The position numbers and the translations under genes are program-made. Source: Clostridia bacterium (lineage in GTDB: Bacteria > Bacillota > Clostridia > Christensenellales > CAG-138). Taken from it: DNA of 64,000 bases. The stretch is taken from contig JAFWOT010000012.1 in NCBI GenBank assembly GCA_017509785.1, forward strand, positions 1,544 to 65,543. The letters run 5' to 3'. This document shows positions 1-28,880 of this stretch, one piece after another. Position 1 is the stretch's first letter; each line of letters starts with the position of its first letter. Below the pieces are notes generated by a model. It saw nothing but the letters and a program-made list of their open reading frames with translations. It was not told the DNA's origin and did not search any database.

Positions 1-1
1 C

Positions 2-2205: not shown

Positions 2206-3538
2206 AGCCTATCCCTCCCAGTTTGATAAGGTCAAGGAGATCACCGACAAGCTGGAAGCCGGTATCCAGGCGCTGTTTGAGAGTGAAGCTTTCAAGAACT
2301 ATCTGAAGACGCTCTCCAAATTCCACGATTATTCCCTGAACAATACGATCCTGATCGCCATGCAGAAGCCGGATGCCACCTTGGTTGCCGGATACACTGC
2401 CTGGCAGAAGAACTTCGGCAGGCAGGTACAGAAGGGCGAGACCGGGATCCGGATCCTTGCTCCGACGCCTTATAAGAAACAGATGGAAGTGGACCGGCTT
2501 GATCCTGTCACGCAACAGCCGGTCCTGAATCCGGACGGCAGCACGGCAAAGGATTTAAAGGAGATCATGGTCCCAGCCTTCAAGGTCGTGAACGTCTTTG
2601 ATGTCAGCCAGACGGACGGAAAGCCCCTACCCACCATCGGCGTGGATGAGCTCTCCGGTAATGTCACAAATTACGAGATGTTCTTCGAAGCCCTGAAACG
2701 GGCGTGCCCGGTTCCTGTCGGCTTTGAGGATATCCCTTCCGGGGCCAAGGGCTACTACCACACGGTTGATGAACGGATCGCCCTGCAGGAAGGTATGAGC
2801 CAGGTCCAGACGGTCAAGACAATGATTCACGAGATGGCCCACCAGAAGCTGCATGCCATTGATCCGAAGGACCTGCCTCCGGAGGAACCGAGGCTCACCC
2901 GAAACGCCAAGGAGGTCGAGGCGGAGGCTGTCGCTTACACCGTCGCCCAGCATTACGGCATCGAGACAAGCGATTACAGCTTTGCCTATATCGCCGGATG
3001 GTCTCACGGAAAGGAAACACCGGAGCTGAAGGCTTCCCTTGACAGGATCCGCAAGGCTGCCGATGAGATGATCACGAGCATCGATGACCACATCATGTAT
3101 CTTCAGCAGGAAAAAGGAATTGACGTGAAACCGGAGATTTCGCCGAATCCTGCTCCCGGTCTTCAGGAGAACGGCAGGTACCGTTATTATTCCACCCAGC
3201 GTCCGGTCGATATCGGCACTTTCCCGAAACCTGCCGGTAATGCTCCTGTGGAGATCCACAACTATGATAATCGGCAGCCTGTTGAGGGTGGCACGATGCA
3301 GGCCTGGGGTTGGCTGGAATACGCTAAGCCTCTGACTGAAAAGGAAGCCGATGATTACGAATTGAAACCAGCCCCGTCTGCGGAGAAAGCTAAGATCGCC
3401 CCGGACCAGTCAGAGTCCTCTTCCGAGAAGAAGCATTCCGTCCTGCAGGATCTGCAGACGAAGGCTGAAAAGGCCAAACAGAAATCCACACAAATAAGCA
3501 CACAGAAATCGCACAAAAAGAAGGAGGAATCACGATGA
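2186..3538 (+). CDS. ArdC-like antirestriction / ssDNA-binding protein with metalloprotease motif
   Basis: N-terminal ArdC_N (DUF1738)-type segment [48 protein letters not shown]. HExxH-type motif [23 protein letters not shown] precedes the ATG. Confidence 0.75.
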   Translation: [450 protein letters not shown]

Positions 3539-3777
3539 TCTTTACCGTAGAAGAAGCTGCTCTGGTCAGCTCATTTGATCATTCCAACCGGAATGCTGCC
3601 CTTTTGAAAATGGCAGCGCATCTGAAGTTGATCGAGGATGCTGAACTGAAGGAGCTCACCCGTCGCACCGTCAGGAAGCTGAACAAACTGACAGACTCAG
3701 AATTCGCCAGCATCGATTTTACTGTCTACGACAGTGATGCTGAGAACGAGGAGGCAGATCATGAGCAAATGGGATGA
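3535..3777 (+). CDS. Transposon-transfer assisting (TTRAP) family protein
   Basis: 80-aa protein. The start MIFTVEEAALVSS... and the C-terminal LTDSEFASIDF match the family pattern as I remember it. The gene is translationally coupled (ATGA overlap). Confidence 0.6.
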   Translation: MIFTVEEAALVSSFDHSNRNAALLKMAAHLKLIEDAELKELTRRTVRKLNKLTDSEFASIDFTVYDSDAENEEADHEQMG

Positions 3778-4294
3778 AGCACACACGGAGCCGATGCATG
3801 ATCACCCTGCTGAAAAGGATCAGCTGGTTGCTGCAATGGAGGCTGCGGGGTATACGCTGGACACACTGGAAAGCACCGGAGACAATCTGAGGTTCTACGG
3901 TGCCTTCGGAAATATCCTGACGATGGGCGGCTGGCATGAATGCGAGGAGTGGCTGAACGGCGTCGTGTTTGATGATCCGCAGGTTTCTGATCGCGTGGAG
4001 ATCATCCTGCATCCGGAGCGTTTCCCGGAACGAGATCCGCAGAGAGCCGCGCTTCGTGCTGTGGAGGACGCCGTGGAACAGAACGACAACAGCTTTGACG
4101 GAATCATCAACAACATGCCGCAGCCGGATCCTGCAGAAGCACTCAGAGCCCAGGCCAGACAATCCGAGCAGACAGCTGCAAGGGATTCTGTTCTGGAGCA
4201 GCTGAAAGCACAGCGCGAACGTGCGGAACAGATCGAGAAGGCAAAACACCGTCCTCACATTCTTCGTCATCCGGAAGAAAGGGAGCATGTATGA
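3761..4294 (+). CDS. Hypothetical conjugative-element protein (possible DUF4316-like motif)
   Basis: ATG at 3761 follows RBS GAGGAGG. The motif EQNDNSFDGIINN recalls the DGIINN signature of Clostridial ICE proteins. That assignment is from memory only. Confidence 0.45.
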   Translation: MSKWDEAHTEPMHDHPAEKDQLVAAMEAAGYTLDTLESTGDNLRFYGAFGNILTMGGWHECEEWLNGVVFDDPQVSDRVEIILHPERFPERDPQRAALRAVEDAVEQNDNSFDGIINNMPQPDPAEALRAQARQSEQTAARDSVLEQLKAQRERAEQIEKAKHRPHILRHPEEREHV

Positions 4295-4623
4295 TTTCCA
4301 GAAGTCAGGACCTGCATGCATATTTTACTCTTGATGAGGTCAAAAGGATCCATGAGCGGATGGCTGAAGCAGGCGTCAGAAGCCGCAGTGCTTATTTTCG
4401 GAAAATGGCTCTGGACGGCTATATCGTTAAGCTGGATATGGAAGAGATCACTGAGATGGTTTCTCTTCTCAGGCATAGCAGCAACAGCCTGAACCAGATC
4501 GCTAAAAAAGTCAATGCCACCGGGTCTCCTTATGGAGCCGACATTGCTTCAATGCAAGCAAGACAAGATGAGATCTGGGAGCTGGCCAAGGAGATCTTAG
4601 CAAGACTTTCGACTATTCAGTAG
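4291..4623 (+). CDS. mobC: MobC-family relaxosome accessory protein
   Basis: 110-aa protein with RSAYFRKMALDGYIV...LLRHSSNSLNQIAKKVNATG, typical of the mobilisation protein MobC. It lies directly upstream of the relaxase. Confidence 0.7.
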   Translation: MISRSQDLHAYFTLDEVKRIHERMAEAGVRSRSAYFRKMALDGYIVKLDMEEITEMVSLLRHSSNSLNQIAKKVNATGSPYGADIASMQARQDEIWELAKEILARLSTIQ

Positions 4624-4631
4624 GAGCAAAC

Positions 4632-4678
4632 GAACCGGGACTGCATCGGATTGATCCGGTGTGGTTCCGGGTTTTTTT
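4632..4678 (+). terminator. Composite hairpin plus T-run between mobC and the relaxase gene (terminator-like; also an oriT candidate)
   Basis: GAACC(4632-4636)/GGTTC(4663-4667) enclose GCATCGGA(4643-4650)/TCCGGTGT(4655-4662, two G-U pairs). The run TTTTTTT at 4672-4678 follows. Confidence 0.35.
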
Positions 4679-4698
4679 AATTTTCAGGAGGAAACCAA

Positions 4699-6093
4699 AT
4701 GGCAGCAACGAGATTAATACCTCTGCATGCAAACAAGGGTCGTACTGTGGCTCAAAGCCTCAGCGACAGAACGGATTATGCCAAGAATCCAGAGAAAACA
4801 GAAAAGGGAGAACTGGTCACAGCTTATCACTGCGACCCATTTACAGTAGACGAGGAATTTATGCTTCAGAAAAGACTCTACCACCAGATCACTGGCGGAA
4901 GCAGAAATGACAAAGTGATTGCCTACCAGATCCGCCAGTCTTTTAAGCCCGGAGAGGTAACGCCGGAAGAAGCGAATCGCCTGGGACATGAACTGGCGAT
5001 GCGGTTTACCAAGGGCAGGTATTCTTTCATCGTGGCTACTCACACAGACCGGGCACATATTCATAACCACATCCTTTTCAATGCCACCAGTATAGACGGA
5101 ACAAAAAAGTTCAGGAACTTCTGGCTTTCCAGTATCGCTCTTCAGCGGGTCAGTGATTTGGTGTGTCTGGAAAATGGACTTTCCGTTATTGCTCCGGTTC
5201 CGTATTCTGAACGCGAAAAAAGAACGGAGTATCCAAAACGCGAAAGCATCCGGACAGTCATATGCTCAGATATTGATGCGGCGCTTCAAAGGAAGCCGAA
5301 AGACTTTTCCAAATTTCTGTCCTTCATGGAAAGCACCGGATATGAGGTGAAGCAAGGGGCAAGAATAGCGGTAAAAGGCAAAAACCAGCAACGCTTCGTT
5401 CGCTTGTCTTCACTCGGTGACGGATATACGGAAGCTGATATCCGCGCAGTTATCTCCGGCGAGAGGCAGCATGAAATCAAAACTCCGGTATTCCATCGAC
5501 GCCAGAGATCCGTAAATCTCATCATAGACATCCAGGCCAAAATGAAAGAAAAAGGTCCGGGTTATACCCGGTGGGCTACGGTTTATAACCTGAAGCAGAT
5601 GTCCAAGACACTGCTGTTTCTGCGTGATAATAAGATCAGCAGTCTGGATCAGCTGCAGGCATTGACTGATGAGAAAACAGCGAAGCGGGATGAGCTGCTG
5701 GCTTCCATTAAAACGTCGGAAGCTCGGCTGACAGAAATCGCTTCTCTCAAAAAGCATATCATCAATTATTCCAAAACTCGCTCCACGTATGAAGAGTACC
5801 GTAAAGCCGGTTACAGTAAAAAGTTCTTTGAGGCTCATCGGGAAGAACTCACTTTGCATAAAGCGGCCAAGCAGGCTTTTGATGAATTGGAAGTCCGCAA
5901 GATTCCGAAGGTCAAGGAATTGTCTGCTGAGTACGCAAGGATACTCACGGAAAAGAAGCAGGCCTATGCAGAGTATCGGATGATAAAGGAAGAAGCGCAG
6001 GAATTGGTGATTGCAAAAATGAATATTGACTCTCTGTACGAAGCTGAAAAAGCGGAGGAACAGCGCATCCGCCAAAGGGAAAAAACGCATTGA
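4699..6093 (+). CDS. Relaxase / mobilisation nuclease (MobA/VirD2 family)
   Basis: Histidine-triad motif HTDRAHIHNHILFNATS. N-terminal relaxase domain with a coiled-coil C-terminus. RBS AGGAGG. Confidence 0.85.
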   Translation: MAATRLIPLHANKGRTVAQSLSDRTDYAKNPEKTEKGELVTAYHCDPFTVDEEFMLQKRLYHQITGGSRNDKVIAYQIRQSFKPGEVTPEEANRLGHELAMRFTKGRYSFIVATHTDRAHIHNHILFNATSIDGTKKFRNFWLSSIALQRVSDLVCLENGLSVIAPVPYSEREKRTEYPKRESIRTVICSDIDAALQRKPKDFSKFLSFMESTGYEVKQGARIAVKGKNQQRFVRLSSLGDGYTEADIRAVISGERQHEIKTPVFHRRQRSVNLIIDIQAKMKEKGPGYTRWATVYNLKQMSKTLLFLRDNKISSLDQLQALTDEKTAKRDELLASIKTSEARLTEIASLKKHIINYSKTRSTYEEYRKAGYSKKFFEAHREELTLHKAAKQAFDELEVRKIPKVKELSAEYARILTEKKQAYAEYRMIKEEAQELVIAKMNIDSLYEAEKAEEQRIRQREKTH

Positions 6094-6160
6094 TCATAAA
6101 GGTGGGACACAAAAAGAAGGCCAGTACGACAACTGGTCTTCTCCTACATTTCTTATTCAG

Positions 6161-6433
6161 TTATCTGTGGCGATTTTGGAGAGATCTCTCCAGGACTCTG
6201 AGCTGTTTCCCAGATAATGACGAGATGAAGTTCTCGATGGATTCATCCTTTGGCTCGGGATCAGGTTCACGCGGTTCGATGATCAGCTTACCTTCTTCAC
6301 ATGAGACCTGGATCGGTGTGTGCTTGTCGAAGCCGTACTGCTTCAACCATTGGCCCTTCAGGATGATAGTGGGAGTTGGAACATAGTTCTTTCCGCTGGT
6401 GTTGTAGACCTTCAGTTTTCTTCTTTCTGCCAT
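6161..6433 (-). CDS. symE: SymE-family type I toxin-antitoxin system toxin (AbrB/SpoVT fold)
   Basis: VPTPTIILKGQWLKQYGFDKHTPIQVSCEEGKLIIEP parallels E. coli SymE [45 protein letters not shown] precedes the ATG at 6433. Confidence 0.75.
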   Translation of the reverse strand: MAERRKLKVYNTSGKNYVPTPTIILKGQWLKQYGFDKHTPIQVSCEEGKLIIEPREPDPEPKDESIENFISSLSGKQLRVLERSLQNRHR

Positions 6434-6726: not shown

Positions 6727-6755
6727 TTGAAAAAATGCGTAATTTTGTGTATAAT
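6727..6755 (+). promoter_or_regulatory. Near-consensus sigma-A promoter upstream of the XRE gene and the type I R-M operon
   Basis: TTGAAA (6727-6732), a 17-nt spacer ending in TG, then TATAAT (6750-6755). Confidence 0.6.
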
Positions 6756-6854: not shown

Positions 6855-7061
6855 ATGGCAGTCAGTTATAACAAGCTCTGGAACCTGGTCAGACAGAACA
6901 AAATGAAGAAAGGTGATCTTGCCAGAGCAGCAGAAATCAGTGCGTATTGGATGTCCAAGCTGAACAAAGATCAGCCTGTACAGATGGAGGTGATGCTCCG
7001 ACTGTGCAAGGTGTTTCATTGTGATATTGGGGATTTGATGGAAGTCATCGAAGAAGAATAA
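6855..7061 (+). CDS. XRE-family helix-turn-helix regulator (possible R-M controller protein)
   Basis: 68-aa protein with HTH segment KKGDLARAAEISAYWMSKLNKDQ and ending LCKVFHCDIGDLMEVIE. ATG at 6855 lies 6 nt after AGGGGG. It is immediately upstream of hsdM. Confidence 0.8.
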   Translation: MAVSYNKLWNLVRQNKMKKGDLARAAEISAYWMSKLNKDQPVQMEVMLRLCKVFHCDIGDLMEVIEEE

Positions 7062-7078: not shown

Positions 7079-9505
7079 ATGCTCGGAGCAATTATAGGCG
7101 ATATCGCCGGTTCCAGATTCGAATGGAATAACAATAAGAACAAAGACTTTGAACTGCTATCTCATATCAAGAGATGTAAACCGACCGATGATAGTATTAT
7201 GTCCCTCGCGATTGCTCAAGCAGTTTTGGATTGCAATGGCGAATACAGTGCTTTGAATCAGCATGCTGTTTCCAGGATGCAGGAACTCGGACGTAGATAT
7301 CCTCACGCTGGCTATGGCGGGCATTTTCATAAATGGATATACGACAGCAATCCTCGTCCCTATAATAGCTGGGGCAATGGATCCGCCATGCGCGTAAGTG
7401 CCTGTGGCTTTGCGGCAGCATCACTTGATGAGGTGAAAGCTCTGGCAAAAGCCGTGACTGAAGTAACGCATAACCATCCGGAAGGTATTAAAGGCGCAGA
7501 AGCAACAGCAGTTGCCATATACCTTGCTCGCAGCGGAATGAGCATGGTTGAGATCAGAGACTACATAGAAACGAATTACTATAAGATCAATTTCAAGTTG
7601 GCAGATATCCGGCCAACATACACTTTTGATGTTTCATGCCAAGGATCTGTGCCGCAGGCGCTGGAAGCATTTTTCGAGTCAACTGGCTTTGAAGATACCA
7701 TTCGAAATGCGATTTCCATCGGCGGAGACAGCGACACGATTGCAGCAATTGCAGGTGGTATCGCAGAGGCATATTACGGCATCCCTGCTGATATCAGAAA
7801 GCTTGCTCTCACATTCTTGGATACAAAGCAGCTTGAGATACTGAATGCATTTGAATCGAAATATGGCGTCATTCTTGAAAAAGATGCCGGGCATGGCATT
7901 TCAAGACCAGCGTCATATTCATCGGTGACAGCTACACCCTCAGGTGATCGACAGGATGCGATGAGTGAAGCAGTGCGGGTTACAGAAGAAGCACAGCATG
8001 CAGATGACATTGCCGATAGAGAGACAACTGCAAATGCGCTTTACAACCATCTGTATGAGGCATGCAATATTCTTCGCGGCCCGATCGATCAGGACGACTA
8101 TAAATCTTACGTCATTCCGATTTTATTCTTCAAACGCATTTCAGACGTGTATGACGAAGAAACGATCGAGGCAGAGCAGCAATACGGTGATGACATCGAG
8201 TTCTACCCTGAAGAAGAGCTGCACACGTTTATTATCCCAAAGGGCTGCCATTGGAATGATGTACGCAATACCAGCGAAGACGTCGGCAAAGCCATCGTAG
8301 ATGCAATGATGGGAATCGAGCATGCCAACCCGGATACGATGGCGGGGCTCTTCTCCTCTTTCGACGATGCAAACTGGACGGATAAAACCAAGCTGGACGA
8401 TGAGCGGTTGAAAGATCTCATCGAGCACATGTCTGCTCTGCCTGTCGGCAACCGGAATTATTCGGCTGACGTTATGGGCGATGCTTATGAATATCTGATC
8501 AAGAAATTTGCTGACATGAGCAAAAAGAATGCCGGAGAATTCTACACCCCACGTTCTGTTGTTAAGCTCATGGTACGTATGCTCAGCCCGAAATCCGGCG
8601 ATTCGGTATATGACCCTGCATGCGGAACCGGCGGAATGCTTATAGAAGCTATCCGCAGCATGGATGATGAAAAAGCATCCTACGGTAAGATTTACGGGCA
8701 GGAAAAGAATCTGTCCACGTCGGCCATTGCAAGAATGAACCTCTTCCTTCACGGAGCAAAGGAGTTCAAAATCGTGCGTGAAGATACTTTGCGCAAGCCG
8801 GTATTCATCCATAACGGTCAGCTACAGCAATTCGATTGCGTGCTGGCCAATCCGCCGTTCGGTCTGGATCACTGGGGCGCGGAGATCTTCGAGAACGACC
8901 AATGGGGCCGCAACATCTGGGGCAGCCCGACTGATTCAAACGCCGACTATGCATGGCTGCAGCACATGTATAAATCGATGCGCCCCGGCAAAGGACGCTG
9001 CGCGGTCGTTATGCCGCAAGGTGTTCTGTTCCACGGCGGACGTGAAGGCGAAATTCGCAAGAAGATGATCGAGACTGATTGCGTTGAGTGCGTGGTCACG
9101 CTCGTGGGTAACCTGTTCTATGGAGCGGGCGTATCCGCATGCATTCTTTTCTTGAACAATAACAAGCCCCTTGCGCATCGTGGAAAGATATGCATGATAG
9201 ATGCAACAAGTATCTACACGGCGCAGCGTGCAAAGAACGTGATGACCGAAGCGAACACGGATGAAGTGTTCCGTTTGTGGCAGGGGTACGAGAACGTGAT
9301 TGATAGATGCGCGATCGTAGACCTTGATACCATTCGAGCTAAAGAGTACACCCTCTCAGTGAATACTTACATTGAGAAAACGCCCGCCCCGCCTATAGAC
9401 CCTAAGAAAATACGCGCAGAGTTCTTCGCCGCACTGCAAGAGGTACATGACAGCGAAGAGGCGCTCACACAACTGCTCAAGGAAGGAGGATACATCGATG
9501 GCTGA
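7079..9505 (+). CDS. hsdM: Fusion protein: ADP-ribosylglycohydrolase domain (aa ~1-265) + type I R-M methyltransferase subunit HsdM (aa ~320-808)
   Basis: ADP-ribosylglycohydrolase (ARH)/DraG signatures: GAIIGDIAGSRFE, WGNGSAMRV, GGDSDTIAAIAGGIAEAYYG. HsdM signatures: N-terminal FFKRISDVYDEE, GEFYTPRSVV, motif I YDPACGTGGML, motif IV NPPFG. It is a single uninterrupted 808-codon frame. Confidence 0.85.
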   Translation: MLGAIIGDIAGSRFEWNNNKNKDFELLSHIKRCKPTDDSIMSLAIAQAVLDCNGEYSALNQHAVSRMQELGRRYPHAGYGGHFHKWIYDSNPRPYNSWGNGSAMRVSACGFAAASLDEVKALAKAVTEVTHNHPEGIKGAEATAVAIYLARSGMSMVEIRDYIETNYYKINFKLADIRPTYTFDVSCQGSVPQALEAFFESTGFEDTIRNAISIGGDSDTIAAIAGGIAEAYYGIPADIRKLALTFLDTKQLEILNAFESKYGVILEKDAGHGISRPASYSSVTATPSGDRQDAMSEAVRVTEEAQHADDIADRETTANALYNHLYEACNILRGPIDQDDYKSYVIPILFFKRISDVYDEETIEAEQQYGDDIEFYPEEELHTFIIPKGCHWNDVRNTSEDVGKAIVDAMMGIEHANPDTMAGLFSSFDDANWTDKTKLDDERLKDLIEHMSALPVGNRNYSADVMGDAYEYLIKKFADMSKKNAGEFYTPRSVVKLMVRMLSPKSGDSVYDPACGTGGMLIEAIRSMDDEKASYGKIYGQEKNLSTSAIARMNLFLHGAKEFKIVREDTLRKPVFIHNGQLQQFDCVLANPPFGLDHWGAEIFENDQWGRNIWGSPTDSNADYAWLQHMYKSMRPGKGRCAVVMPQGVLFHGGREGEIRKKMIETDCVECVVTLVGNLFYGAGVSACILFLNNNKPLAHRGKICMIDATSIYTAQRAKNVMTEANTDEVFRLWQGYENVIDRCAIVDLDTIRAKEYTLSVNTYIEKTPAPPIDPKKIRAEFFAALQEVHDSEEALTQLLKEGGYIDG

Positions 9506-10985
9506 CCGTATGACGATCGACGAGTTGAAATCGTACCTGTGGCAATCTGCTGTATTGCTCCGTACCAACATTGATGCAGGCGCATATAAGCAGTACATTT
9601 TCCCGCTAATGTTCTTTAAACGGATATGCGATGTTTACGATGAAGAGACGGAAAAAGCTATCGCCGAATATGGTGATGACATCGACCTTTACCCGGAAGA
9701 AGAGCTTCATACATTCATCGTTCCAAAAGGACACCACTGGAATGATGTACGGCAGGTCACCGAGGATGTCGGCAGAGCGATCGTAACCGCTTTCAAAGAA
9801 ATCGAAAAGGCCAACGGCGAAAAAATGACCGGTATCTTTGGAGACGGCGCATGGACGAACAAAAATCGGCTTCCGGACAGACTGTTGAAGGATTTGCTGG
9901 AGCACTTCTCTTCGAGATCGCTGTCTCTCACCAACTGCCCGGAAGATGAGCTCGGTAACGGATACGAATATCTGATCAAGCAGTTTGCCGATGACAGCGG
10001 CCATACAGCGCAAGAGTTTTATACCAACAGGACTGTCGTTCACCTGATGACAGAGATTCTGCAACCGCAGAGCGGAGAGTCCGTTTACGATCCGACCTGC
10101 GGCAGCGCCGGCATGCTCATTTCCTGCATTGCGCACCTAAAAGCAAATGGACAGGAATGGCGCAACATCCAGGCCTACGGTCAAGAAATCAATCAGCTGA
10201 CCTGTGCGATCGGCAGAATGAACCTGTTCCTCCATGGCGTCGAGGATTTCCACATCGTCAATGATGATACGCTCAAAAACCCCGCTTTTATCGAGCGTGG
10301 CCAGCTGCAGCAGTTCGACATCGTTCTTGCAAATCCGCCGTATTCGATCAAACAGTGGGATCGCGGCGCTTTTGAGAACGATAAATATGGCCGTAATTTC
10401 TTGGGAACACCTCCGCAGGGACGCGCAGACTTTGCCTTCTTCCAGCACATACTCAAGAGCATGAAACCGGGCACTGGTCGTTGTGCGATACTCTTCCCTC
10501 ACGGGATACTGTTCCGTGGAGAAGAAACGGATATGCGAAAAAAGTTGGTTGAGAGTGATCTGGTAGAATGCGTGATTGGCATAGGCAAGAATCTGTTCTT
10601 TAACAGCCCCATGGATGCCTGCATTGTGATATGCAGAACCAACAAGCCGATTGATCGACGTGGAAAGGTGCTGTTTATCAACGCGAGAAACGAAGTAACA
10701 CGAAAAAATGCAGAGAGCTATCTTGAGGATACTCATATTGAAAAAATCGCAAGCGTATACCATCAGTTTAAGGTCGTAGATGGGTTTTCGGCAATCGCAG
10801 ATAATGAAGCGATCCTTCGCAATGATGGAAAGCTTAGCATAGCACTGTATGTGACAAATGCAGGCGACGGCGATCAAGAAAAACAGTCGTTTGATGATGC
10901 GATTGCAGAGTGGATGACTGGATATGCTGAAATGCGAGAAACTTATGATGCCTTGTGCAATATGCTTCCGGAGGAATCCATATGA
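9498..10985 (+). CDS. hsdM: Type I R-M methyltransferase subunit HsdM (second paralogue)
   Basis: ATG at 9498 follows GGAAGGAGGA and overlaps the upstream stop by 8 nt. Motifs: FFKRICDVYDEE, QEFYTNRTVV, YDPTCGSAGML, NPPYS. Confidence 0.9.
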   Translation: MADRMTIDELKSYLWQSAVLLRTNIDAGAYKQYIFPLMFFKRICDVYDEETEKAIAEYGDDIDLYPEEELHTFIVPKGHHWNDVRQVTEDVGRAIVTAFKEIEKANGEKMTGIFGDGAWTNKNRLPDRLLKDLLEHFSSRSLSLTNCPEDELGNGYEYLIKQFADDSGHTAQEFYTNRTVVHLMTEILQPQSGESVYDPTCGSAGMLISCIAHLKANGQEWRNIQAYGQEINQLTCAIGRMNLFLHGVEDFHIVNDDTLKNPAFIERGQLQQFDIVLANPPYSIKQWDRGAFENDKYGRNFLGTPPQGRADFAFFQHILKSMKPGTGRCAILFPHGILFRGEETDMRKKLVESDLVECVIGIGKNLFFNSPMDACIVICRTNKPIDRRGKVLFINARNEVTRKNAESYLEDTHIEKIASVYHQFKVVDGFSAIADNEAILRNDGKLSIALYVTNAGDGDQEKQSFDDAIAEWMTGYAEMRETYDALCNMLPEESI

Positions 10986-12103
10986 GCAGAATGAGACTAA
11001 AAGACATTGCTGTTGAAAAGAATGAACGAGTGGACAATCCATCCAGTAGTCCATATAGAATTTTTGTGGGTTTAGAGCATTATGATTCCGGGGAGGCTAC
11101 AATCCGCAGATACGGAAGCACTGAGAGACTTGAATCAACCATGAAGGTCTTTCATGCTGGCGATATATTGATTGCAAGAAGAAACGTTTATTTGAAGCGG
11201 GCAGCAACGGTAGATTTCGACGGTCTCACCTCCGGTGATTCCATTGTTCTGCACATTGAAAACGAAGCTTACAGGCGGATAATACCGTTTGTGTTGAACA
11301 CGGATGATTTCTGGGATTATGCCAATCAGCACGCTGACGGATCGATGTCAAAAAGGCTTTCACCCAAGCTGTTGATGGAATATGAGTTTTCCCTCCCTGA
11401 TGATAATAGCATCGATCGCGTATCCAATTTACTGTGGGCGATGGAGCGGGTAAAAAACGCATATAGGGAGCTGATTGCCAGAACCGACGATTTGGTGAAA
11501 TCGCAATTTATCGAGATGTTTTATGAGAAAGAATATCCAGAGTACAAGCTGAAAGAGCTATGTTCAAAGATAACAGATGGTACACATAAGACGCCTAATT
11601 ATCAAGACAGCGGAATTATATTCATTTCCGCAAAGAACATTATAGACGGCAAGCTGAGCTTCGATGATGTAAAGTACATTACCACAGAAGAATACAAGGA
11701 AATACAAAAACGCTGTATGACAGAGCCCGGGGACGTACTAATGGCTAAAAGCGGCTCCCTTGGAATGGTGGCAATTGTTGATACAGAACAACCGCTCGGT
11801 TTGTTCGAAAGCTTAGCGGTCTTGAAGTACGACAGAACGAAATTGGACGGTATATTCTTGAAAGAGCAGCTACGTTCAGACACTGCTCAGAGACAGCTGA
11901 TGGCTGGCGTAAAGGGAGTGGCAGTGAAGCACCTTCACTTGAATGTGATATCGGAAGTGCCGGTGATTGTACCTCCACTTGATGTACAGCGCCAGTTTGC
12001 AGCTTTCGTGGAACAGAGCGATAAATCAAAATTTACAGCCCAACAGACGCTGAAAGAGCTCACCGACGCGCAGAAGGCGCTGATGAAGAAAATATTTGAG
12101 TAA
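10982..12103 (+). CDS. hsdS: Type I R-M specificity subunit HsdS (two target-recognition domains, TRDs)
   Basis: ATGA overlap with hsdM. The layout is TRD1, central conserved region (DLVKSQFIEMF), TRD2, distal conserved region (FVEQSDKSKF...). Confidence 0.85.
   Translation: MSRMRLKDIAVEKNERVDNPSSSPYRIFVGLEHYDSGEATIRRYGSTERLESTMKVFHAGDILIARRNVYLKRAATVDFDGLTSGDSIVLHIENEAYRRIIPFVLNTDDFWDYANQHADGSMSKRLSPKLLMEYEFSLPDDNSIDRVSNLLWAMERVKNAYRELIARTDDLVKSQFIEMFYEKEYPEYKLKELCSKITDGTHKTPNYQDSGIIFISAKNIIDGKLSFDDVKYITTEEYKEIQKRCMTEPGDVLMAKSGSLGMVAIVDTEQPLGLFESLAVLKYDRTKLDGIFLKEQLRSDTAQRQLMAGVKGVAVKHLHLNVISEVPVIVPPLDVQRQFAAFVEQSDKSKFTAQQTLKELTDAQKALMKKIFE
11501..11515 (+). repeat. hsdS conserved-region repeat R1 (TCGCAATTTATCGAG), three direct copies
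   Basis: Identical 15-mers at 11501-11515, 13111-13125 and 13668-13682, all on the + strand. The first and third copies share 18 bp (AAATCGCAATTTATCGAG). Confidence 0.9.
12012..12034 (+). repeat. hsdS conserved-region repeat R2 (AACAGAGCGATAAATCAAAAT[TT]), three direct copies
   Basis: Copies at 12012-12034, 13634-13656 and 14197-14217, all on the + strand. They share 21-25 bp of identity. Confidence 0.9.
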
Positions 12104-12146
12104 TAATCTACATGGCGAAGGATGTTGGTACAAAGGAGCAATCAAC

Positions 12147-13106
12147 ATGACAAGCCAGATGATTATGAGAATTGAGCAGCAAATGCTCGCGCACCTAGAC
12201 AACAGACAGATGAAGCAATTGCATGCGGTACTGTCCGCTTGCATACAGGAAACCTGCCCCCAGCCCGATGCAGATCACATCCAGCTTTTTCTGGCAGCAA
12301 AAAGAGTTGAGGGCTGTTCGGGAAAAACGATACGGTATTATGATTCCACCCTGAGAAATGTTTTGAGTTCCATAGGAAAAGACGTGCTCCAGATCACCAC
12401 CGATGATCTGCGCCTCTATCTGGATTCGTACCAGTCGAACCGCGCAGCAGGCAAAACGACGATCGACAATATCCGTCGAATCCTATCGAGCTTCTTTGCA
12501 TGGCTGGAAGATGAGGATTATATCCTGAAAAGCCCCGTGCGAAGGATCCACAAAGTGAAGACGTGCAAAACGGTGAAGGAAACCTATTCCGATGAGGCGC
12601 TGGAGATCATGCGCGATCACTGCGAAAATAGCCGCGATCTGGCATTGATCGATCTGCTGGCCTCAACCGGAATGCGCGTGGGAGAGCTGGTGCTTCTCAA
12701 CCGGGACGATATTGACTTCACCAATCGAGAGTGCGTAGTGCTCGGCAAGGGCAATAAGCAGCGCAAAGTGTATTTCGATGCCAGAGCAAAGATACACCTG
12801 CAGAATTATCTGCATGGAAGGACGGATGATAACCCTGCGCTGTTCGTATCGTTGCAGAAGCCGCATAATCGGCTCCAGATACGCGGCATTGAAATCCGCC
12901 TACATGAGCTCGGTAAAAAGCTGAAGTTATGTCGGATCCACCCACATAAGTTCCGGAGAACGCTCGCTACCATGGCGATCGACAAAGGAATGCCGATCGA
13001 GCAGGTGCAGCAATTACTCGGGCACCAGAGTGTAGATACGACACTACAGTACGCGATGGTGAACCAGGCGAATGTGAAACAGTCCCATAAGAAGTTCATC
13101 GGTTGA
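12147..13106 (+). CDS. Tyrosine site-specific recombinase (XerC/D-like) embedded in the hsdS locus
   Basis: Motifs ASTGMRVGEL, HPHKFRRTLAT and LLGHQSVDTTLQYA (the R..H-x-x-R..Y catalytic set). ATG at 12147 follows AAAGGAG. Confidence 0.85.
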   Translation: MTSQMIMRIEQQMLAHLDNRQMKQLHAVLSACIQETCPQPDADHIQLFLAAKRVEGCSGKTIRYYDSTLRNVLSSIGKDVLQITTDDLRLYLDSYQSNRAAGKTTIDNIRRILSSFFAWLEDEDYILKSPVRRIHKVKTCKTVKETYSDEALEIMRDHCENSRDLALIDLLASTGMRVGELVLLNRDDIDFTNRECVVLGKGNKQRKVYFDARAKIHLQNYLHGRTDDNPALFVSLQKPHNRLQIRGIEIRLHELGKKLKLCRIHPHKFRRTLATMAIDKGMPIEQVQQLLGHQSVDTTLQYAMVNQANVKQSHKKFIG

Positions 13107-13110
13107 TCAG

Positions 13111-13656
13111 TCGCAATTTATCGAGGTGATCACCCCCCTGTTGGAAGCAGGGAAAACCATACCTCTTAACGATTTGGTTGAAGATGACAGGCCGATCACT
13201 TACGGCATTCTTAAACCGGGTACTGGATGTCCGGGCGGCGTTCCGGTGGTGAAAGTAAAGGACATGCGTGATGGAGCGATCGATCAGTCTGATCTTCTGC
13301 TAACCACACCGGAGCTGGATTATCAATATCGGCGTTCTCGCCTTCGCGCCGGAGATCTTCTCATTTCGATACGAGGATCTGTAGGTCGTATGGCAGAAGT
13401 CCCTGAAAACCTTGAAAACGCTAATATCACACAAGATACAGCAAGGCTTACAATAAAGCCAGAATTCAACAAGGTTTTCGTTCGTGGGGTATTGGAATCT
13501 GAACCCATGCAGCGCGACATGGAGCGCAATATACGCGGCGTTGCTGTCAAAGGAATCAATATTGGATACCTACGAGTACTTGAAATTCCGATGTGTGAGC
13601 GGGAGGAACAGGATAGACTTGCACGGCTATATCAACAGAGCGATAAATCAAAATTT
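13111..13656 (+). pseudogene. Silent hsdS half-cassette 1 (R1 - TRD - R2) with no own start or RBS
   Basis: It begins at the SQFIE conserved-region repeat immediately after the recombinase stop. The TRD motif is GDLLISIRGSVGRMAEVP. It ends with YQQSDKSKF. Confidence 0.75.
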
Positions 13657-13680
13657 GCCGGTGCAAATCGCAATTTATCG
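13641..13680. repeat. Imperfect 40-bp palindrome at the junction of the two silent hsdS cassettes
   Basis: CGATAAAT-caaa-ATTTGC-cggt-GCAAAT-cgca-ATTTATCG. The outer 8-bp and inner 6-bp arms are exact inverted repeats. Confidence 0.8.
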
Positions 13681-14276
13681 AGCAGTTCATTCAAGGAGAA
13701 AGGTATCCGTCCGTTCGGTTGGATGCGGTTTCAATGGTCAGCAGTGGACTGACCAAGAACTCTAAGCGCCCAACATTTGAAATCAAGATGCCCTATCTTC
13801 GGGTGGCAAACGTGTTTTTCGATTACATCGACCTTGCGGATGTTCAGACGATCGGTGTGCAAGAAAGCGAAATAGAAAAAACTTTGCTGAAAAAAGGAGA
13901 CGTTTTGTTCGTTGAAGGCAATGGCAGCCCCGATCAGATAGGCCGCGTTGCAGTATGGGATGGCCAATTAGAGCCGATGCTGCACCAAAACCATATCATT
14001 AAAGCGCGCCCTGACGAGCGAAAAGTTTTGCCGAGATACTGCATGTATTTCTTTATGACGCAGGCCGGTCGGAGCCAGATACTGAGCAGTGCGAAAACTA
14101 CCTCTGGACTGTACACTTTGAGCCTGAGCAAGATAGCAGGGTTTGAATTGCCGCTTGCGCCACTGGAGGAACAACAGCGGTTTTTACAGTTGGTGGAACA
14201 GAGCGATAAATCAAAATATTTGCTTCAGAGTGTAGCAGAAGCATTCACGATAAAAAGAAACTATAGGAGGTTGTGA
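13668..14276 (+). pseudogene. Silent hsdS half-cassette 2 (R1 - TRD - R2) with no ATG or RBS
   Basis: The frame is open from 13647 and reads SQFIEQFIQGERYPSVRLDAVSMVSSGLTKNS..., ending LVEQSDKSKYLL.... It is frame-shifted relative to cassette 1. Confidence 0.75.
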
Positions 14277-14279: not shown

Positions 14280-17192
14280 ATGCCGGGAACTTTCACGGAA
14301 CAAAACGTTGAGGATATGGTCATTCATGCAGTCGAATCAAACGGCTGGGACTATATTCGTGCAGATGACCTGCCCAGAGCAGAGTCAGATGTGCTGGTGG
14401 AAAAGCATCTACGTGCTGCCCTTATTAGGCTGAATCCTTGCATCGCGGAAAATCCAGCACATGCTGATACCGTGATCTATAAACTGCGGGCATTGATATC
14501 TACAGTTCGTCCTCACGATCTCGTCACGCAGAATGAACGTTTCAAAAAGCTCATTTTCGAGGAAAACAGCTTCCCCTTCGACAAAGATGGAAGGTCGATC
14601 AGCATCAAGTTCTTCGACTATGATAACCCGGAGAACAACACTTTTGTGGTGACCAATCAGTGGGTGTACCCACAGAAGGTAGGTGGAAAGCGGCTCGACG
14701 TCGTTCTGCTCATCAACGGATTCCCTGTCGCCATCGGAGAAATGAAGTCGCCGGTCAGACCGTCGATTAGCTGGATGGATGGCGCAGGTGATATTCTCGA
14801 TTATGAGAAATCGATTCCGGAAATGTTTGTCACAAACATTCTGAACTTTGCGACTGAGGGCAAGTGCTTCCGATATGGTGCGATCAATGCACCGGTCACC
14901 CTGTGGGGTCCGTGGTATTCCAATATTCCGCATGAAGAAGGCGATCTGACAAAGGTACAGAAAGCCGTTGCCTCTATCACGCGGAAAGAGGTCATCCTTG
15001 ACCTGTTCCGTTATTTCACTTTGTTCTCCACGGATAAACATAACCGCAAGATCAAGATCGTATGCCGTTACCAACAGTATGAAGGTGCAAACCTCATTGT
15101 CGATCGTGTCAAGGCAGGATACCCGAAGAAGGGCTTGATCTGGCATTTCCAGGGTAGCGGTAAATCCCTGCTGATGGTGTTCGCTGCACAGAAGCTTCGC
15201 ATGGTGAAGGAGTTGAATGCGCCGACCGTTATCATCGTAAATGATCGCATTGATCTGAGTGGGCAGATTTTCGGCACCTTCTCCATGGCTGACGTGCCAA
15301 ACCTTGTACCGGCAGACACGAACGCCGAATTGATTCGCCTCCTCAAAGCGGATTCACGTAAAGTGATTATCACTAAGATTTTTGAGTTTGCTCAGATCAA
15401 CGAAGCGATCAACTATCGTGATAACATAATCCTGATGGTGGATGAAGCACACCGGACACAGGAAGGTGACCTCGGTGCAAAAATGCGAATGGCGCTTCCT
15501 AACGCATTCTTTTTCGGCCTGACGGGCACACCCATAAACAAATTGGATCGGAATACGTTTGCCACCTTCGGCGCAACCGAGGATCGTTCAGGTTACATGA
15601 GCCGGTATTCCTTCGCGGATTCCGTCAGCGATAAAGCCACCCTTCCACTGCACTTTGAACCGGTACCGGTCAAGCTGCATGTGGATCAGGCAGCAATCGA
15701 TGAAGCATTTAAGGCTCTTGCCGATGAAGCTGGGCTCACCGAGGAAGAACGCTCGAAGGTCGCGCAGCGCGTTCGTATGGCTGCTATCATGAAGGATCCG
15801 GAACGAATCAAAGCGGTGTGTGCTCATATCGCCGACCATTTCATGTCAAAGGTGAACCCCAACGGATTCAAGGCACAGGTAGTTTGCTACGATAGAGAAT
15901 GCTGTGTGCTATACAAGAAGGAATTGGATAAACTTCTTGGCGAGGCAACGTCTACAATCGTTATGGACACCAATAACGATAAGGCCGATGTGTATAAAAA
16001 ATGGCGTCGTACCCGTGAAGAAGAAGCAAAGGTATTGGATGACTTCCGCGATCCGAATAACCCGCTGCAGATAGTAATCGTAACAAGCAAACTGCTTACT
16101 GGATTCGATGCGCCGATATTACAGGTTATGTACCTTGATAAACCAATGAAGGATCACACTCTGCTTCAGGCCATTTGTCGGACGAATCGTGTATACGGGC
16201 AGGACAAAACATATGGTCTCATTGTTGACTACGTTGGCATTTTCGACGACGTCGCAAAGGCGCTAGCGTTTGACGCAGATGCCGTCGAACGGATCATCAC
16301 CAATATCGAGAGCGTAAAAGCGAAAGTTCCACAGCTTGTGGCGGCTTGCATTGGCTTTTTCCCGGGTGTGGACAGAACCCGTGATGACTGGGAGGGGCTT
16401 GTTGCTGCTCAGGACTGCTTGCCGAATGATGAAATGAAAGATAAGTTCGGCGCACAGTATCGTGTGTTGAATCGCGTTTGGAATGCGCTTTCGCCGGACA
16501 ATTGCCTCAATCCTTTCAAAGAGGACTACAGATGGCTGTCGAAGGTTTACGATTCTATTCGTCCGACCGATGAACGCGGCAAATTGATTTGGGCTGCACT
16601 CGGCCCCAAGACGCTTCAGCTCGTTCATGACAATATCTCCGTTGAAGAAGTTGGTACAGATGAAGACATCCTTGCAATGGATGCCGAAATCATCCAGCGG
16701 TTTATAGAAGGCGATCCAAATGCGGAGAAAAAACGCAGAAAGATCGAAATAGATCTTGCCGCTATTATCCGAAAACACCCGGACGATCCTCGATTTATTG
16801 CGCTTGGCGCACGTATGGAAAAGCTCCGTGAAGAGCATGAGGCAGGCCTGCTTACCAGCATGGAGTTCCTGAAGGCTTTGCTTGAGCTCGCAAAAGATGT
16901 GGCACAGGTGGAAAAAGAAGTTGTGCCAGAGGAAGAAGTCGATAAAGGAAAGGCAGCACTGACATCTCTTTTCCAGAATGTCAAGAATGACAACACCCCT
17001 ATCATAGTCGAACGTATTGTGAATGACATCGATGGGATCGTTAGGATCGTCCGCTTCCCTGGCTGGCAGAACACTTCCACCGGTAGGAAAGAAGTCAGCA
17101 AAAACCTTCGTGATGTTATCATGCGCAAGTACCGGATTAAGGATCAGGAAGTGTTTGCGAAAGCATATAGTTACGTGGAGCAGTACTATTAA
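14280..17192 (+). CDS. hsdR: Type I restriction endonuclease subunit HsdR
   Basis: 970-aa protein. N-terminal nuclease region, Walker A-like HFQGSGKS, DEAH-type box MVDEAHR, helicase C motifs TGFDAP...QAICRTNR. Confidence 0.9.
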   Translation: MPGTFTEQNVEDMVIHAVESNGWDYIRADDLPRAESDVLVEKHLRAALIRLNPCIAENPAHADTVIYKLRALISTVRPHDLVTQNERFKKLIFEENSFPFDKDGRSISIKFFDYDNPENNTFVVTNQWVYPQKVGGKRLDVVLLINGFPVAIGEMKSPVRPSISWMDGAGDILDYEKSIPEMFVTNILNFATEGKCFRYGAINAPVTLWGPWYSNIPHEEGDLTKVQKAVASITRKEVILDLFRYFTLFSTDKHNRKIKIVCRYQQYEGANLIVDRVKAGYPKKGLIWHFQGSGKSLLMVFAAQKLRMVKELNAPTVIIVNDRIDLSGQIFGTFSMADVPNLVPADTNAELIRLLKADSRKVIITKIFEFAQINEAINYRDNIILMVDEAHRTQEGDLGAKMRMALPNAFFFGLTGTPINKLDRNTFATFGATEDRSGYMSRYSFADSVSDKATLPLHFEPVPVKLHVDQAAIDEAFKALADEAGLTEEERSKVAQRVRMAAIMKDPERIKAVCAHIADHFMSKVNPNGFKAQVVCYDRECCVLYKKELDKLLGEATSTIVMDTNNDKADVYKKWRRTREEEAKVLDDFRDPNNPLQIVIVTSKLLTGFDAPILQVMYLDKPMKDHTLLQAICRTNRVYGQDKTYGLIVDYVGIFDDVAKALAFDADAVERIITNIESVKAKVPQLVAACIGFFPGVDRTRDDWEGLVAAQDCLPNDEMKDKFGAQYRVLNRVWNALSPDNCLNPFKEDYRWLSKVYDSIRPTDERGKLIWAALGPKTLQLVHDNISVEEVGTDEDILAMDAEIIQRFIEGDPNAEKKRRKIEIDLAAIIRKHPDDPRFIALGARMEKLREEHEAGLLTSMEFLKALLELAKDVAQVEKEVVPEEEVDKGKAALTSLFQNVKNDNTPIIVERIVNDIDGIVRIVRFPGWQNTSTGRKEVSKNLRDVIMRKYRIKDQEVFAKAYSYVEQYY

Positions 17193-27235: not shown

Positions 27236-27269
27236 TGCCAAGGCTTTATAAACTACAAAGGATAAGCAA

Positions 27270-27788: not shown

Positions 27789-27839
27789 CAGATTCCGGTC
27801 TGTCGGGATGGGCCCCATAGTAAAAGTTTAACCAGAGGT

Positions 27840-27876
27840 CTCGGAGCAACACTGCTCCGAGGCCTCTTTCCTTTTG
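27840..27876 (+). terminator. Rho-independent terminator closing the defence operon
   Basis: CTCGGAGCA (27840-27848), loop ACAC, TGCTCCGAG (27853-27861), followed by GCCTCTTTCCTTTTG. Confidence 0.75.
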
Positions 27877-27933
27877 CGTTGACGCCTGCAGCCGTCAACG
27901 TGTCTATCTGGAGCAGAAATCCGTTTTGAAGCC

Positions 27934-28879: not shown

Positions 28880-28880
28880 A

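Follow-up and report, generated by a model that had tools for sequence, protein, structure and literature searches.

An ADP-ribosylglycohydrolase domain fused to the M1 methyltransferase of a predicted two-methylase type I restriction-modification system in Clostridia

The locus described here, located in a 64,000-nucleotide stretch of DNA from a Clostridia bacterium (the window), raises the question why an ADP-ribosylglycohydrolase (ARH) domain should be joined in one polypeptide to HsdM, the methyltransferase subunit of type I restriction-modification (R-M) systems. ORF listing and translation of positions 7079..9505 (+) revealed a single ATG-started ORF of 808 amino acids (aa) free of internal stops, in agreement with the uninterrupted 808-codon frame reported in a preliminary description of this DNA. 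Pfam analysis located ADP_ribosyl_GH at aa 1-235 (2e-33; 116.7 bits versus a cut-off of 26.2), HsdM_N at aa 323-451 (1.7e-22) and N6_Mtase at aa 462-767 (4.8e-95), which bears out the presence of two complete domains. The linker between them, initially estimated at ~50 aa, measures ~56 aa. All sequence motifs quoted in that description were found in the translated protein, namely GAIIGDIAGSRFE (aa 3-15), WGNGSAMRV (aa 98-106) and GGDSDTIAAIAGGIAEAYYG (aa 215-234), followed in the HsdM part by YDPACGTGGML (aa 511-521) and NPPFG (aa 591-595).

The exact 808-aa protein is present on 13 contigs; the matches listed (five places) are ENA and Logan assemblies from different samples. Of 14 related genome loci (numbered with the prefix L below), 12 keep this frame open, and in L009 the product is shortened to 644 aa. 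Clustering at 90% identity gave at least 119 clusters with the ARH-HsdM architecture, and the ARH domain is carried by 119 of the 120 closest relatives of the HsdM core (M1). Because an identical protein occurs on 13 contigs and nearly all closest relatives carry the ARH domain, the fusion is not an assembly artefact; independent assemblies, related loci and homologue clusters together exclude the frameshift or assembly error against which the preliminary description had cautioned. The ARH-HsdM fusion is thus confirmed as real and conserved. The literature searched, including term searches inside the most relevant papers, contained no description or characterisation of such a fusion, consistent with the earlier remark that no characterised example was known, and no annotated plasmid of PLSDB carried it. 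The same description had expected novelty to fall should the architecture prove both common and functionally described. The architecture is abundant in metagenomes, yet it belongs to one narrow lineage and no description of it was found.

The methyltransferase part had been described as an HsdM without further distinction. This identity stood, but the protein is better assigned as M1 of a two-methylase m6A/m4C type I system, as a second HsdM gene, absent from that description, lies directly downstream. Non-canonical type I R-M systems of the m6A/m4C class (M1M2S) include PacII, DbaKI, Mma5219I and others (Morgan et al. 2016, PMC5100572), and the structure of PacII is available as 7vru (Zhu et al. 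2022, PMC9613975). In this class one strand receives m6A and the other m4C, as with PacII, and the defining motifs are NPPF and AGEF in M1 and NPPY and AAEF in M2 (PMC5100572, PMC9613975). Among PDB entries, the M1 core matched 7vru chain A best (9e-134), ahead of chain B (3e-118), and M2 matched chain B best (1.1e-160), ahead of chain A (1.5e-122), each subunit thereby scoring higher with its own PacII counterpart, where the chains, unlabelled in the PDB table, were assigned as M1 (A) and M2 (B) from this reciprocal pattern and the motifs. Classical HsdMs such as EcoR124I scored 1e-56 or weaker. M1 reads NAGEFYTP and NPPFG, and M2 reads NPPYS and TAQEFYT; three of the four family motif states are present, M2 having AQEF where the family has AAEF. 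As in the PacII class, the HsdM paralogues stand in tandem in the order M1, M2, S, R, with M1 preceding M2, which adjoins hsdS, and hsdR following. The tandem M1-M2 arrangement recurs in every related locus with enough DNA, and the layout M1-M2-hsdS-hsdR is kept in L001-L007, L009-L011, L013, L015, L016, L018, L019, L021 and L022; L037 contains an M2-S fusion, as in Dac11109IV. Judged from sequence, it is well supported that the fusion protein represents the M1 (m6A) subunit of a non-canonical, PacII-like M1M2S(R) type I R-M system, and m6A/m4C chemistry is predicted for this system. Unlike the PacII class, M1 here bears 318 N-terminal residues comprising ARH and linker, and the hsdS region contains a recombinase and spare TRD cassettes. 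A term search of PMC5100572 and PMC9613975 retrieved no ADP-ribose-related wording.

Table 1. Features of the ARH-M1 operon, in positions of the window.
Feature	Position	Strand	Evidence or remark
Sigma-70-like promoter candidate, TTGAAA-17-TATAAT, 11/12 matches	6727..6755	+	consensus match alone
HTH_26 (XRE-type) regulator, 68 aa	6855..7061	+	PF13443; stops 17 nt 5' of the fusion gene
ARH domain, aa 1-262	7079..7864	+	Pfam (2e-33), likeness to ARH3, AF2 model
Linker, aa 263-318, with one predicted helix (aa 291-308)	7865..8032	+	column identity, pN/pS, pLDDT
M1 methyltransferase core (HsdM_N and N6_Mtase), AGEF and NPPF	8033..9505	+	Pfam, likeness to PacII; predicted m6A subunit
M2 methyltransferase, 495 aa, NPPY	9498..10985	+	Pfam, likeness to PacII; predicted m4C subunit
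HsdS specificity subunit, 373 aa	10982..12103	+	PF01420
Tyrosine recombinase, 319 aa, embedded in the hsdS region	12147..13106	+	annotation
Two spare half-hsdS (TRD) cassettes	13141..13752, 13734..14276	+	annotation, repeats
HsdR restriction/translocase subunit, 970 aa	14280..17192	+	HSDR_N, SWI2_SNF2, T1R_D3-like, ResIII
ORF of 138 aa, start overlapping the hsdR stop by 1 nt	17192..17608	+	membership of the system uncertain

The operon runs from the HTH regulator through ARH-M1, M2, HsdS and the recombinase with its spare TRD cassettes to HsdR (Table 1), and is carried by an integrative conjugative element in an Oscillospiraceae-like genome of gut or rumen Clostridia. The candidate promoter motif was counted once, compared with 1.1 sites expected in shuffled sequences. 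The HTH_26 protein is probably a controller protein of the R-M operon; homologues occupy the same position in L002, L004, L005, L011, L013 and L035, and a WYL regulator takes its place in L009 and L037. M2, which is 46% identical to the M1 core, is preceded by the Shine-Dalgarno sequence GGAAGGAGG, and its start overlaps the M1 stop by 8 nt (ATGGCTGA). The tyrosine recombinase is conserved in L001, L006, L010, L011, L013, L016, L018 and L019. Direct repeats that also occur in the expressed hsdS (families D1 and D2) bound each TRD cassette; no inverted repeats were found. HsdR is 81-94% identical in related loci. The 138-aa ORF had no family match in Pfam, PADLOC, NCBIfam or PHROGs and tblastn matches only in copies of this same element; an unannotated 132-aa gene stands in its place in L035.

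Structure modelling and alignment indicated that the ARH domain is intact. Its score lay above the curated threshold of the superfamily profile PF03747, and PHROG 6572 matched it as well (5e-54). By sequence, the best solved relative is ARH3 (2e-14). The AF2 model of the domain (pLDDT 95.8, pTM 0.94) adopts the all-alpha ARH fold, and Foldseek searches with it returned ARH3 first (TM 0.75-0.78), then MJ1187 and DraG, all three with a probability of 1.00 and TM values of 0.71-0.78. In the alignment with ARH3 suggested by the preliminary description, all ligands of the di-metal site were kept and conserved: E15, T36-D37-D38 and D217/D219/T220 align with the metal-site ligands E41, T76-D77-D78 and D314/D316/T317 of human ARH3. 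Conservation of these seven residues and of a TH motif (T130-H131) is complete or at least 90%, and the metal ligands are invariant across 119 fused homologues and 90 ARH relatives, which rules out a degenerate catalytic site. Values of pN/pS, tabulated in place of dN/dS as saturation left just three usable ARH pairs, were 0.10-0.17 for ARH versus 0.24-0.54 for the linker and indicate that the ARH domain is under purifying selection. Apparently, it is an active ADP-ribosylhydrolase with an intact two-metal site.

ARH3 (ADPRHL2/ADPRS), a eukaryotic serine-ADP-ribose, poly(ADP-ribose) and O-acetyl-ADP-ribose hydrolase, is closest in sequence and fold and has equivalents of the entire metal site; unlike ARH3, the domain described here is bacterial and methyltransferase-fused, shares 21-25% identity with it and, at 262 aa versus ~340, is ~80 residues shorter. 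DraG and Tri1, which are arginine-ADP-ribose hydrolases and erase protein ADP-ribosylation either as orphans or with a partner, belong to the same superfamily and fold. Equivalence to either was rejected on the basis of NCBIfam scores far under the cut-offs (57.9 versus 337.05 for DraG; 32.3 versus 490 for Tri1) and, unlike them, no DraT or Tre1 partner is annotated near ARH-M1. More generally, Pfam annotation of the genes around the ARH-M1 loci looked up, and of the rest of the element, contained no ADP-ribosyltransferase (ART) family. Nor did these annotated neighbours, from which a very divergent ART could escape, include an adjacent DarT, and a DarTG-type toxin-antitoxin system was rejected on this ground. 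No PADLOC model matched the ARH domain, which was consequently not assigned to a known defence system.

A conceptual parallel is offered by host systems centred on ARG proteins, for which a role against viral ADP-ribosylation has been predicted (Iyer et al. 2022, PMC9503650, section 3.8). Like ARH-M1, these contain orphan ARG/ARH proteins without a coupled transferase, are occasionally tied to restriction-fold effectors and have WYL proteins nearby (in L009 and L037 directly upstream, in the window downstream) as well as a Nudix gene (here in the same island, ~27270..27788). They are systems of Actinobacteria, Planctomycetes and Proteobacteria with phosphatases and chaperones at their core; neither a phosphatase nor a chaperone gene was seen near ARH-M1, and a term search of PMC9503650 found no mention of HsdM, methylase or R-M. 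A second parallel is provided by DarG1 (NADAR), DarG2 (macrodomain), the ARH-like DarG3 and phage AdfN, erasers without their own transferase which undo the ADP-ribosylation of an opponent. DarG-type erasers work on DNA bases and for the most part differ in fold, and no DarT is annotated here.

The best explanation of these findings, which we put forward tentatively and at somewhat less than an even chance, is that M1 of an M1M2S complex carries a tethered ARH eraser that cleans the complex or adjoining proteins. ADP-ribosyltransferases of invaders, for instance Alt-like enzymes that phages inject or the ART domains carried by polyvalent proteins of phages and conjugative elements, would attach ADP-ribose to the restriction complex or to neighbouring proteins on incoming DNA. 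Its hydrolysis by ARH would allow methylation and restriction to keep working and would constitute a built-in counter to anti-restriction. The linker is predicted to be a flexible tether: its column identity is 0.47-0.65 compared with at least 0.9 in the M1 core, its length is near constant (the fusion proteins mostly having 808 aa in total), and in a model of the whole protein (pTM 0.55) it reached pLDDT values of 55-81, with the ARH and M1 modules lacking a fixed relative orientation. Such a tether would give ARH reach and a high local concentration and, because its ~56 aa join ARH to M1, each M1M2S complex should carry one eraser domain. ARH-less M1 forms exist at 83-88% identity (L021; P0393), and the ARH domain is consequently an add-on, dispensable for the R-M core. 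Following the reasoning that an eraser lacking a partner enzyme removes modifications of extrinsic origin, an ARH without an annotated ART nearby points to extrinsic modification as its target (Iyer et al. 2022, PMC9503650). Among the protein-modifying domains of polyvalent proteins, which phages and conjugative elements are predicted to introduce along with their DNA, ARTs are the most frequent (PMC5512222), and post-translational modification of defence proteins by a phage is an established counter-defence, as exemplified by a T7 kinase (PMC13645617). The literature searched contained no report of ADP-ribosylation of any type I R-M subunit. The wider version of this explanation, in which the R-M complex carries its own repair enzyme and ARH strips invader-made ADP-ribose from the complex or from the DNA or proteins engaged by it, appears possible, if doubtful.

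Members of the ARH subfamily have many unrelated fusion partners, and their census is too heterogeneous to fix the substrate. At ~70% identity, relatives have NADAR or an RlaP nucleotidyltransferase as fusion partner, and RNase_T and SseB are further partners. SseB is a predicted peptide-binding chaperone found in ARG-centred systems (Iyer et al. 2022, PMC9503650), and the SseB-fused relatives were counted as support for an eraser directed at proteins. A search for a general eraser theme in the N-terminal extensions of other HsdMs revealed no Pfam domain save one MerR HTH.

Among the alternatives, it is unlikely, though deserving serious consideration, that ARH is a passenger which does the job of a stand-alone ARH, such as immunity to ADP-ribosylating toxins or clearing of ADP-ribose conjugates, and was fused to M1 for co-expression and co-transfer, uncoupled from restriction. 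Stand-alone ARH genes 73-80% identical to the domain occur in unrelated contexts without R-M, and a neighbour-joining tree, on which no weight was placed as it is star-like and without support values, interleaves fused and stand-alone ARHs. On several contigs an intact 289-aa ARH ORF persists after decay of the R-M genes and therefore has value without the complex. The stand-alone genes and the persisting ORF were also counted against a tethered eraser, and the weak constraint on the linker and the promiscuity of the subfamily likewise favour a passenger. However, mere cargo would be expected to split from M1 or vanish more often than is seen among the closest M1 genes, where the fusion is nearly universal and is kept across M1 divergence down to 62% identity; the near-constant linker length and, in related loci, the transfer of the fusion as a unit between different mobile elements also argue against a passenger. 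Swapping of ARH modules by recombination had been suspected, as 99%-identical M1 cores carry 84%-identical ARHs. In the closest pair the synonymous differences were equally saturated (pS 0.64 in ARH versus 0.61 in the core) and, because pS is equal in both parts, the identity gap reflects weaker constraint on ARH and recombination is not demonstrated.

A role in which ARH removes ADP-ribose from DNA or RNA, either base-linked (of the DarT or pierisin type) or on terminal phosphates, seems unlikely. The R-M complex would bring ARH to the DNA, and sites would become readable, methylatable or translocatable. Fusion to a DNA-clamping enzyme is consistent with such a role, and so is the kinship with ARH3, an enzyme that also cleaves phosphate-linked ADP-ribose off DNA and RNA termini. 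The NADAR, RlaP and RNase_T fusions of close relatives point in the same direction; they leave a nucleic-acid substrate possible and were counted against the tethered eraser as well. An ARH-fold antitoxin of a DarT system, "DarG3", was reported in 2026 (PMC13069673), and ARH-like hydrolases reverse phosphate-linked ADP-ribosylation of RNA, as stated in a part of PMC11833690. On the other hand, the known reversers of base-linked DNA ADP-ribose are macrodomains and NADARs, each specific to the base modified by the cognate toxin (PMC11825919), and neither DarT nor another ART is annotated in the loci looked up. Moreover, the shielding of a phage's own DNA by ADP-ribose is without precedent, and DNA modified in this way is not replicable.

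It is highly improbable that an endogenous ADP-ribosylation cycle in the style of DraT/DraG switches the complex between restriction and modification, for example to relieve restriction upon arrival of the element in a new host whose DNA is unmethylated. ARH-based control has a precedent in DraT/DraG, a conjugative element must set up methylation ahead of restriction, and in EcoKI the N-terminal region of HsdM sways the choice between the two activities; but no partner transferase is annotated in either the operon or those related loci that were looked up, and the HTH or WYL regulator already offers transcriptional control. The chance that a frameshift or assembly error created the fusion, or that ARH is a decaying remnant, is negligible: frameshifted or truncated relatives exist (P0230, L009, L039-L041), but this reading was ruled out by the same ORF on all 13 contigs, the architecture of the 119 or more clusters, the invariant catalytic residues and the purifying selection seen in pN/pS.

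With this locus the m6A/m4C type I class gains a phase-variable member from gut and rumen Clostridia, borne by an integrative conjugative element, and M1 is shown to accept a large cargo domain at its N terminus, which bears on the engineering of these enzymes. Were the wider version of the tethered-eraser explanation true, this would be the first defence system known with a built-in eraser against modification-based anti-defence, and ADP-ribosylation of R-M enzymes would be an unrecognised anti-restriction strategy of gut phages and conjugative elements. If ARH indeed protects the complex, defence systems would evolve built-in erasers, which would add one more layer to the arms race.

ARH-M1, the fusion of an ADP-ribosylglycohydrolase (ARH) domain to HsdM, is encoded by one uninterrupted, ATG-started frame of 808 codons, as the ORF listing and the translation confirmed, and all motifs quoted in the preliminary description were found in the translated protein. 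Pfam recognised both domains named there, and the linker, put at about 50 residues, comprises some 56 (aa 263-318). The exact 808-aa protein is present on 13 contigs, and the five places shown are ENA and Logan assemblies from different samples. Of 14 related genome loci, 12 have the frame open (799-812 aa), and no fewer than 119 clusters at 90% identity display the architecture; these findings rule out an artefact of assembly or sequencing. The copy at locus L009 is shortened to 644 aa. At L032 (8001-10414), on a 560-kb contig, a frameshifted or decaying copy is split into two ORFs, one for ARH plus HsdM_N (438 aa) and one for N6_Mtase (363 aa); immediately upstream are an additional M/S-like gene and an IS21-family element.

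The HsdM part of ARH-M1 is complete, as previously claimed; overlooked at that stage was a second HsdM gene, which is preceded by a strong Shine-Dalgarno sequence and overlaps the ARH-M1 stop codon by 8 nt (ATGGCTGA). The protein it encodes and the HsdM part of ARH-M1 share 46% identity. Two studies (Morgan et al. 2016, PMC5100572; Zhu et al. 2022, PMC9613975) define a non-canonical type I class with its genes ordered M1-M2-S-R, in which an upstream M1 (NPPF/AGEF) generates m6A and a downstream M2 (NPPY/AAEF) m4C, both forming an M1M2S methyltransferase with S. ARH-M1 carries AGEF and NPPF and the downstream HsdM carries NPPY, the sole motif departure being AQEF instead of AAEF in the latter. 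The M1 core (chain A 9e-134, chain B 3e-118) and M2 (chain B 1.1e-160, chain A 1.5e-122) matched the PacII structure 7vru as reciprocal best hits, where the chains are unlabelled in the PDB table and this pattern, with the motifs, was the basis for reading A as M1 and B as M2; classical HsdMs matched much more weakly. The tandem M1-M2 pair recurs in all related loci with enough sequence. On the basis of the PacII matches, motifs, gene order and tandem pairs, the locus very probably belongs to the m6A/m4C type I class, with predicted m4C activity.

A relative, L037, carries the R-M module on a different mobile element, with a WYL regulator directly upstream of ARH-M1 and M2 fused to HsdS (12417-15095, 892 aa), an M2-S fusion matching the one noted for Dac11109IV by Morgan et al. 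(PMC5100572). Further M1/M2-like HsdMs (P0312, P0307, P0339, P0371) possess N-terminal extensions of 170-580 residues without Pfam match, one with a MerR HTH; accessory domains may in general be attached at HsdM N-termini. Fusions with accessory domains are frequent in defence systems.

The spare hsdS cassettes are flanked by direct repeats that recur midway in hsdS and at its 3' end, with a conserved core GAACAGAGCGATAAATCAAAAT at 12011-12032, 13633-13654 and 14196-14217, and TCGCAATTTATCGAG at about 11501, 13111 and 13668. A search for inverted repeats in the hsdS variable region (10982..14276) gave none, and recombinase and cassettes are oriented the same way as hsdS, unlike the inversion shufflons of the well-known phase-variable type I systems. 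Judged from position, the cassettes replace TRD2. As TRD2 of PacII recognises the m6A half-site served by M1, according to PMC5100572, the cassettes would by analogy change this half-site here.

An integrative conjugative element (ICE) carries the R-M operon as cargo. Upstream, RadC and an ABC-F protein accompany the tabulated TopB, LPD16, ArdC-N/DarA_C, TTRAP, NikA, relaxase and SymE genes. The WYL regulator and ZacABC are a candidate defence module, which with the R-M system makes up a small defence island on the ICE. Two integrases mark the ICE end at about 37.3 kb, beyond which lies host chromosome (37543..64000); its dockerin is in keeping with a Ruminococcus or Oscillospiraceae-type host that bears a cellulosome.

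Features of the R-M operon, the surrounding ICE and the adjoining chromosome (window coordinates unless given as aa)
Feature	Position	Strand	Remark
ArdC-N/DarA_C polyvalent-type protein	2186..3538
Relaxase	4699..6093		ICE backbone span 1..6433, with TopB, LPD16, TTRAP, NikA-like
SymE-family toxin	6161..6433	-
Promoter-like site	6727-6755	+	near-consensus
HTH_26 regulator	6855..7061	+	68 aa
ARH-M1	7079..9505	+
ADP_ribosyl_GH	aa 1-235 of ARH-M1		Pfam 2e-33
HsdM_N	aa 323-451 of ARH-M1		Pfam 1.7e-22
N6_Mtase	aa 462-767 of ARH-M1		Pfam 4.8e-95
M2	9498..10985	+
HsdS	10982..12103	+
Tyrosine recombinase	12147..13106	+
Two spare half-hsdS (TRD) cassettes	13141..14276	+
HsdR	14280..17192	+
138-aa ORF		+	unassigned; start overlaps hsdR stop
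WYL regulator	17641..18618	+	adjoins R-M operon downstream
ZacA (DUF6361)	18630..19859	+	1e-86
ZacB	19792..21687	+	5e-142
ZacC	21708..26105	+	1465-aa helicase, E=0
Nudix	~27270..27788
LexA-like S24 peptidase	28014..28628
ImmA-like M78 peptidase			within 26131..37346
Y-family polymerase	30131..31105
DUF6551	within 26131..37346
PemK toxin	~33940..34362
Excisionase-like HTH_17	within 26131..37346
Two tyrosine integrases	34732..35943; ~36105..37346
Dockerin-containing protein	38607..39938	-	chromosomal
Serpin	41695..42987	-	chromosomal
UvrC	43090..44934		chromosomal
Acetate kinase with phosphotransacetylase; RecX	within 37543..64000		chromosomal

The nearest solved relatives of the ARH domain by sequence are ARH3 orthologues (2e-14), followed by MJ1187, DraG and ARH1. 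An AlphaFold2 model based on 91 sequences (pLDDT 95.8, pTM 0.94) likewise retrieved ARH3 first in a Foldseek search of the PDB (TM 0.75-0.78), then MJ1187 and DraG. The catalytic glutamate and the di-metal ligands are all retained as E15, T36-D37-D38 and D217/D219/T220, the counterparts of E41, T76-D77-D78 and D314/D316/T317 of ARH3. Across 119 fused homologues and 90 ARH relatives these residues, like a T130-H131 motif, vary little or not at all; the acidic metal residues, for which the preliminary description proposed an alignment to DraG/ARH3, are intact. The domain scores far below the NCBIfam cut-offs for the DraG and Tri1 equivalogs, and PADLOC holds no model for it. The phage ARH family PHROG 6572 matches it at 5e-54, and proteins of 40-61% identity are encoded by Porphyromonas and Bacteroides phages as well as by some megaphages.

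As all pairs were saturated at synonymous sites, pN/pS was used, which overestimates dN/dS. Values of 0.10-0.17 for the ARH domain against 0.03-0.08 for the M1 core clearly place the ARH domain under purifying selection, weaker than that on the methylase. The linker (0.24-0.54) is weakly constrained in sequence and almost constant in length. The full-length AlphaFold2 model comprises two confident modules and a linker of pLDDT 55-81 with one helix (aa 291-308); its overall pTM of 0.55 indicates modules without fixed relative orientation.

Among 50%-identity representatives of an exhaustive library, only one further full-length fusion was present (P0241, 61% identity), so the fusion is a single, narrow lineage. 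Genome matches come from Clostridia MAGs of gut and rumen (Oscillospiraceae, Ruminococcus, Faecalibacterium, Subdoligranulum) and a few bins with unlikely labels. Some fusion-bearing bins (L004, L012, L014, L019, L022) carry a Candidatus Saccharibacteria or Thermoguttaceae label, which is implausible given that the ICE is a Clostridia element; they probably contain a mis-binned mobile element, the alternative being real transfer. M1 forms without ARH exist (P0393, 88% identity; L021, 83%), hence the R-M core can do without this domain. Conversely, stand-alone ARH genes of 73-80% identity occur in unrelated contexts. L039 (6001-7282), L040 and L041 are decayed copies of the system, in which an intact 289-aa ARH ORF ends inside the linker; after it come an HsdM_N stub of 132-142 aa and then unrelated chromosomal genes. 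As several near-identical variants of this 289-aa ORF are found on multiple contigs, ARH was apparently retained after R-M loss. Such orphan and stand-alone forms would suit a passenger domain without mechanistic coupling to restriction, an explanation we consider rather unlikely. Of the 120 closest M1 genes within the lineage, 119 keep ARH, which speaks against a passenger, as does the constant linker length.

Relatives within the ARH subfamily (P0163, P0164 and P0273-P0386; 54-72% identical) are fused to NADAR, RlaP nucleotidyltransferase, SseB, protein kinase, patatin, RNase_T, DUF1810, flavodoxin, dockerin and many regions without any Pfam match, which makes this eraser module very promiscuous. 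A nucleic-acid substrate, which we regard as unlikely for ARH-M1, finds support in the fusions to NADAR, RlaP and RNase_T and in the ARH-fold DarG3 reported in 2026 (PMC13069673). An endogenous regulatory cycle is highly improbable; no ADP-ribosyltransferase (ART) gene was annotated in any neighbourhood inspected, in this element or in related loci.

Full-text literature searches, and term searches within PMC5100572, PMC9613975 and two Aravind-group surveys, turned up no account of the ARH-HsdM fusion, in line with the earlier remark that no characterised example was known. The cluster members checked have no source name on record, and one relative is labelled by JGI merely as 'type I restriction enzyme M protein'. 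Each building block is known by itself; their combination is undescribed and uncharacterised.

ARH-M1 carries a conserved, intact ARH domain, flexibly tethered at the M1 N-terminus of an M1M2S-type system on a mobile element. In other ARG-centred systems, an eraser without a writer is taken to act on modifications that an extrinsic enzyme has introduced (Iyer et al. 2022, PMC9503650); by analogy, since no cognate writer is annotated in the neighbourhoods inspected, this would most plausibly apply to ARH-M1. Among the protein-modifying domains of polyvalent proteins, which are predicted to be co-delivered with phage or conjugative-element DNA, ARTs occur most often, and T4 Alt is injected together with phage DNA (PMC5512222). 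That phages counter defence proteins by modifying them post-translationally is by now established, the T7 kinase being an example (PMC13645617). From this orphan-eraser logic, the ARTs and the kinase precedent we tentatively infer, as the favoured reading, a tethered eraser: extrinsic transferases would ADP-ribosylate the restriction complex or adjacent proteins on incoming DNA, and ARH would clear ADP-ribose from either. With function inferred in this way, the locus yields a clean, testable hypothesis, that ADP-ribosylation may serve as an anti-restriction strategy.
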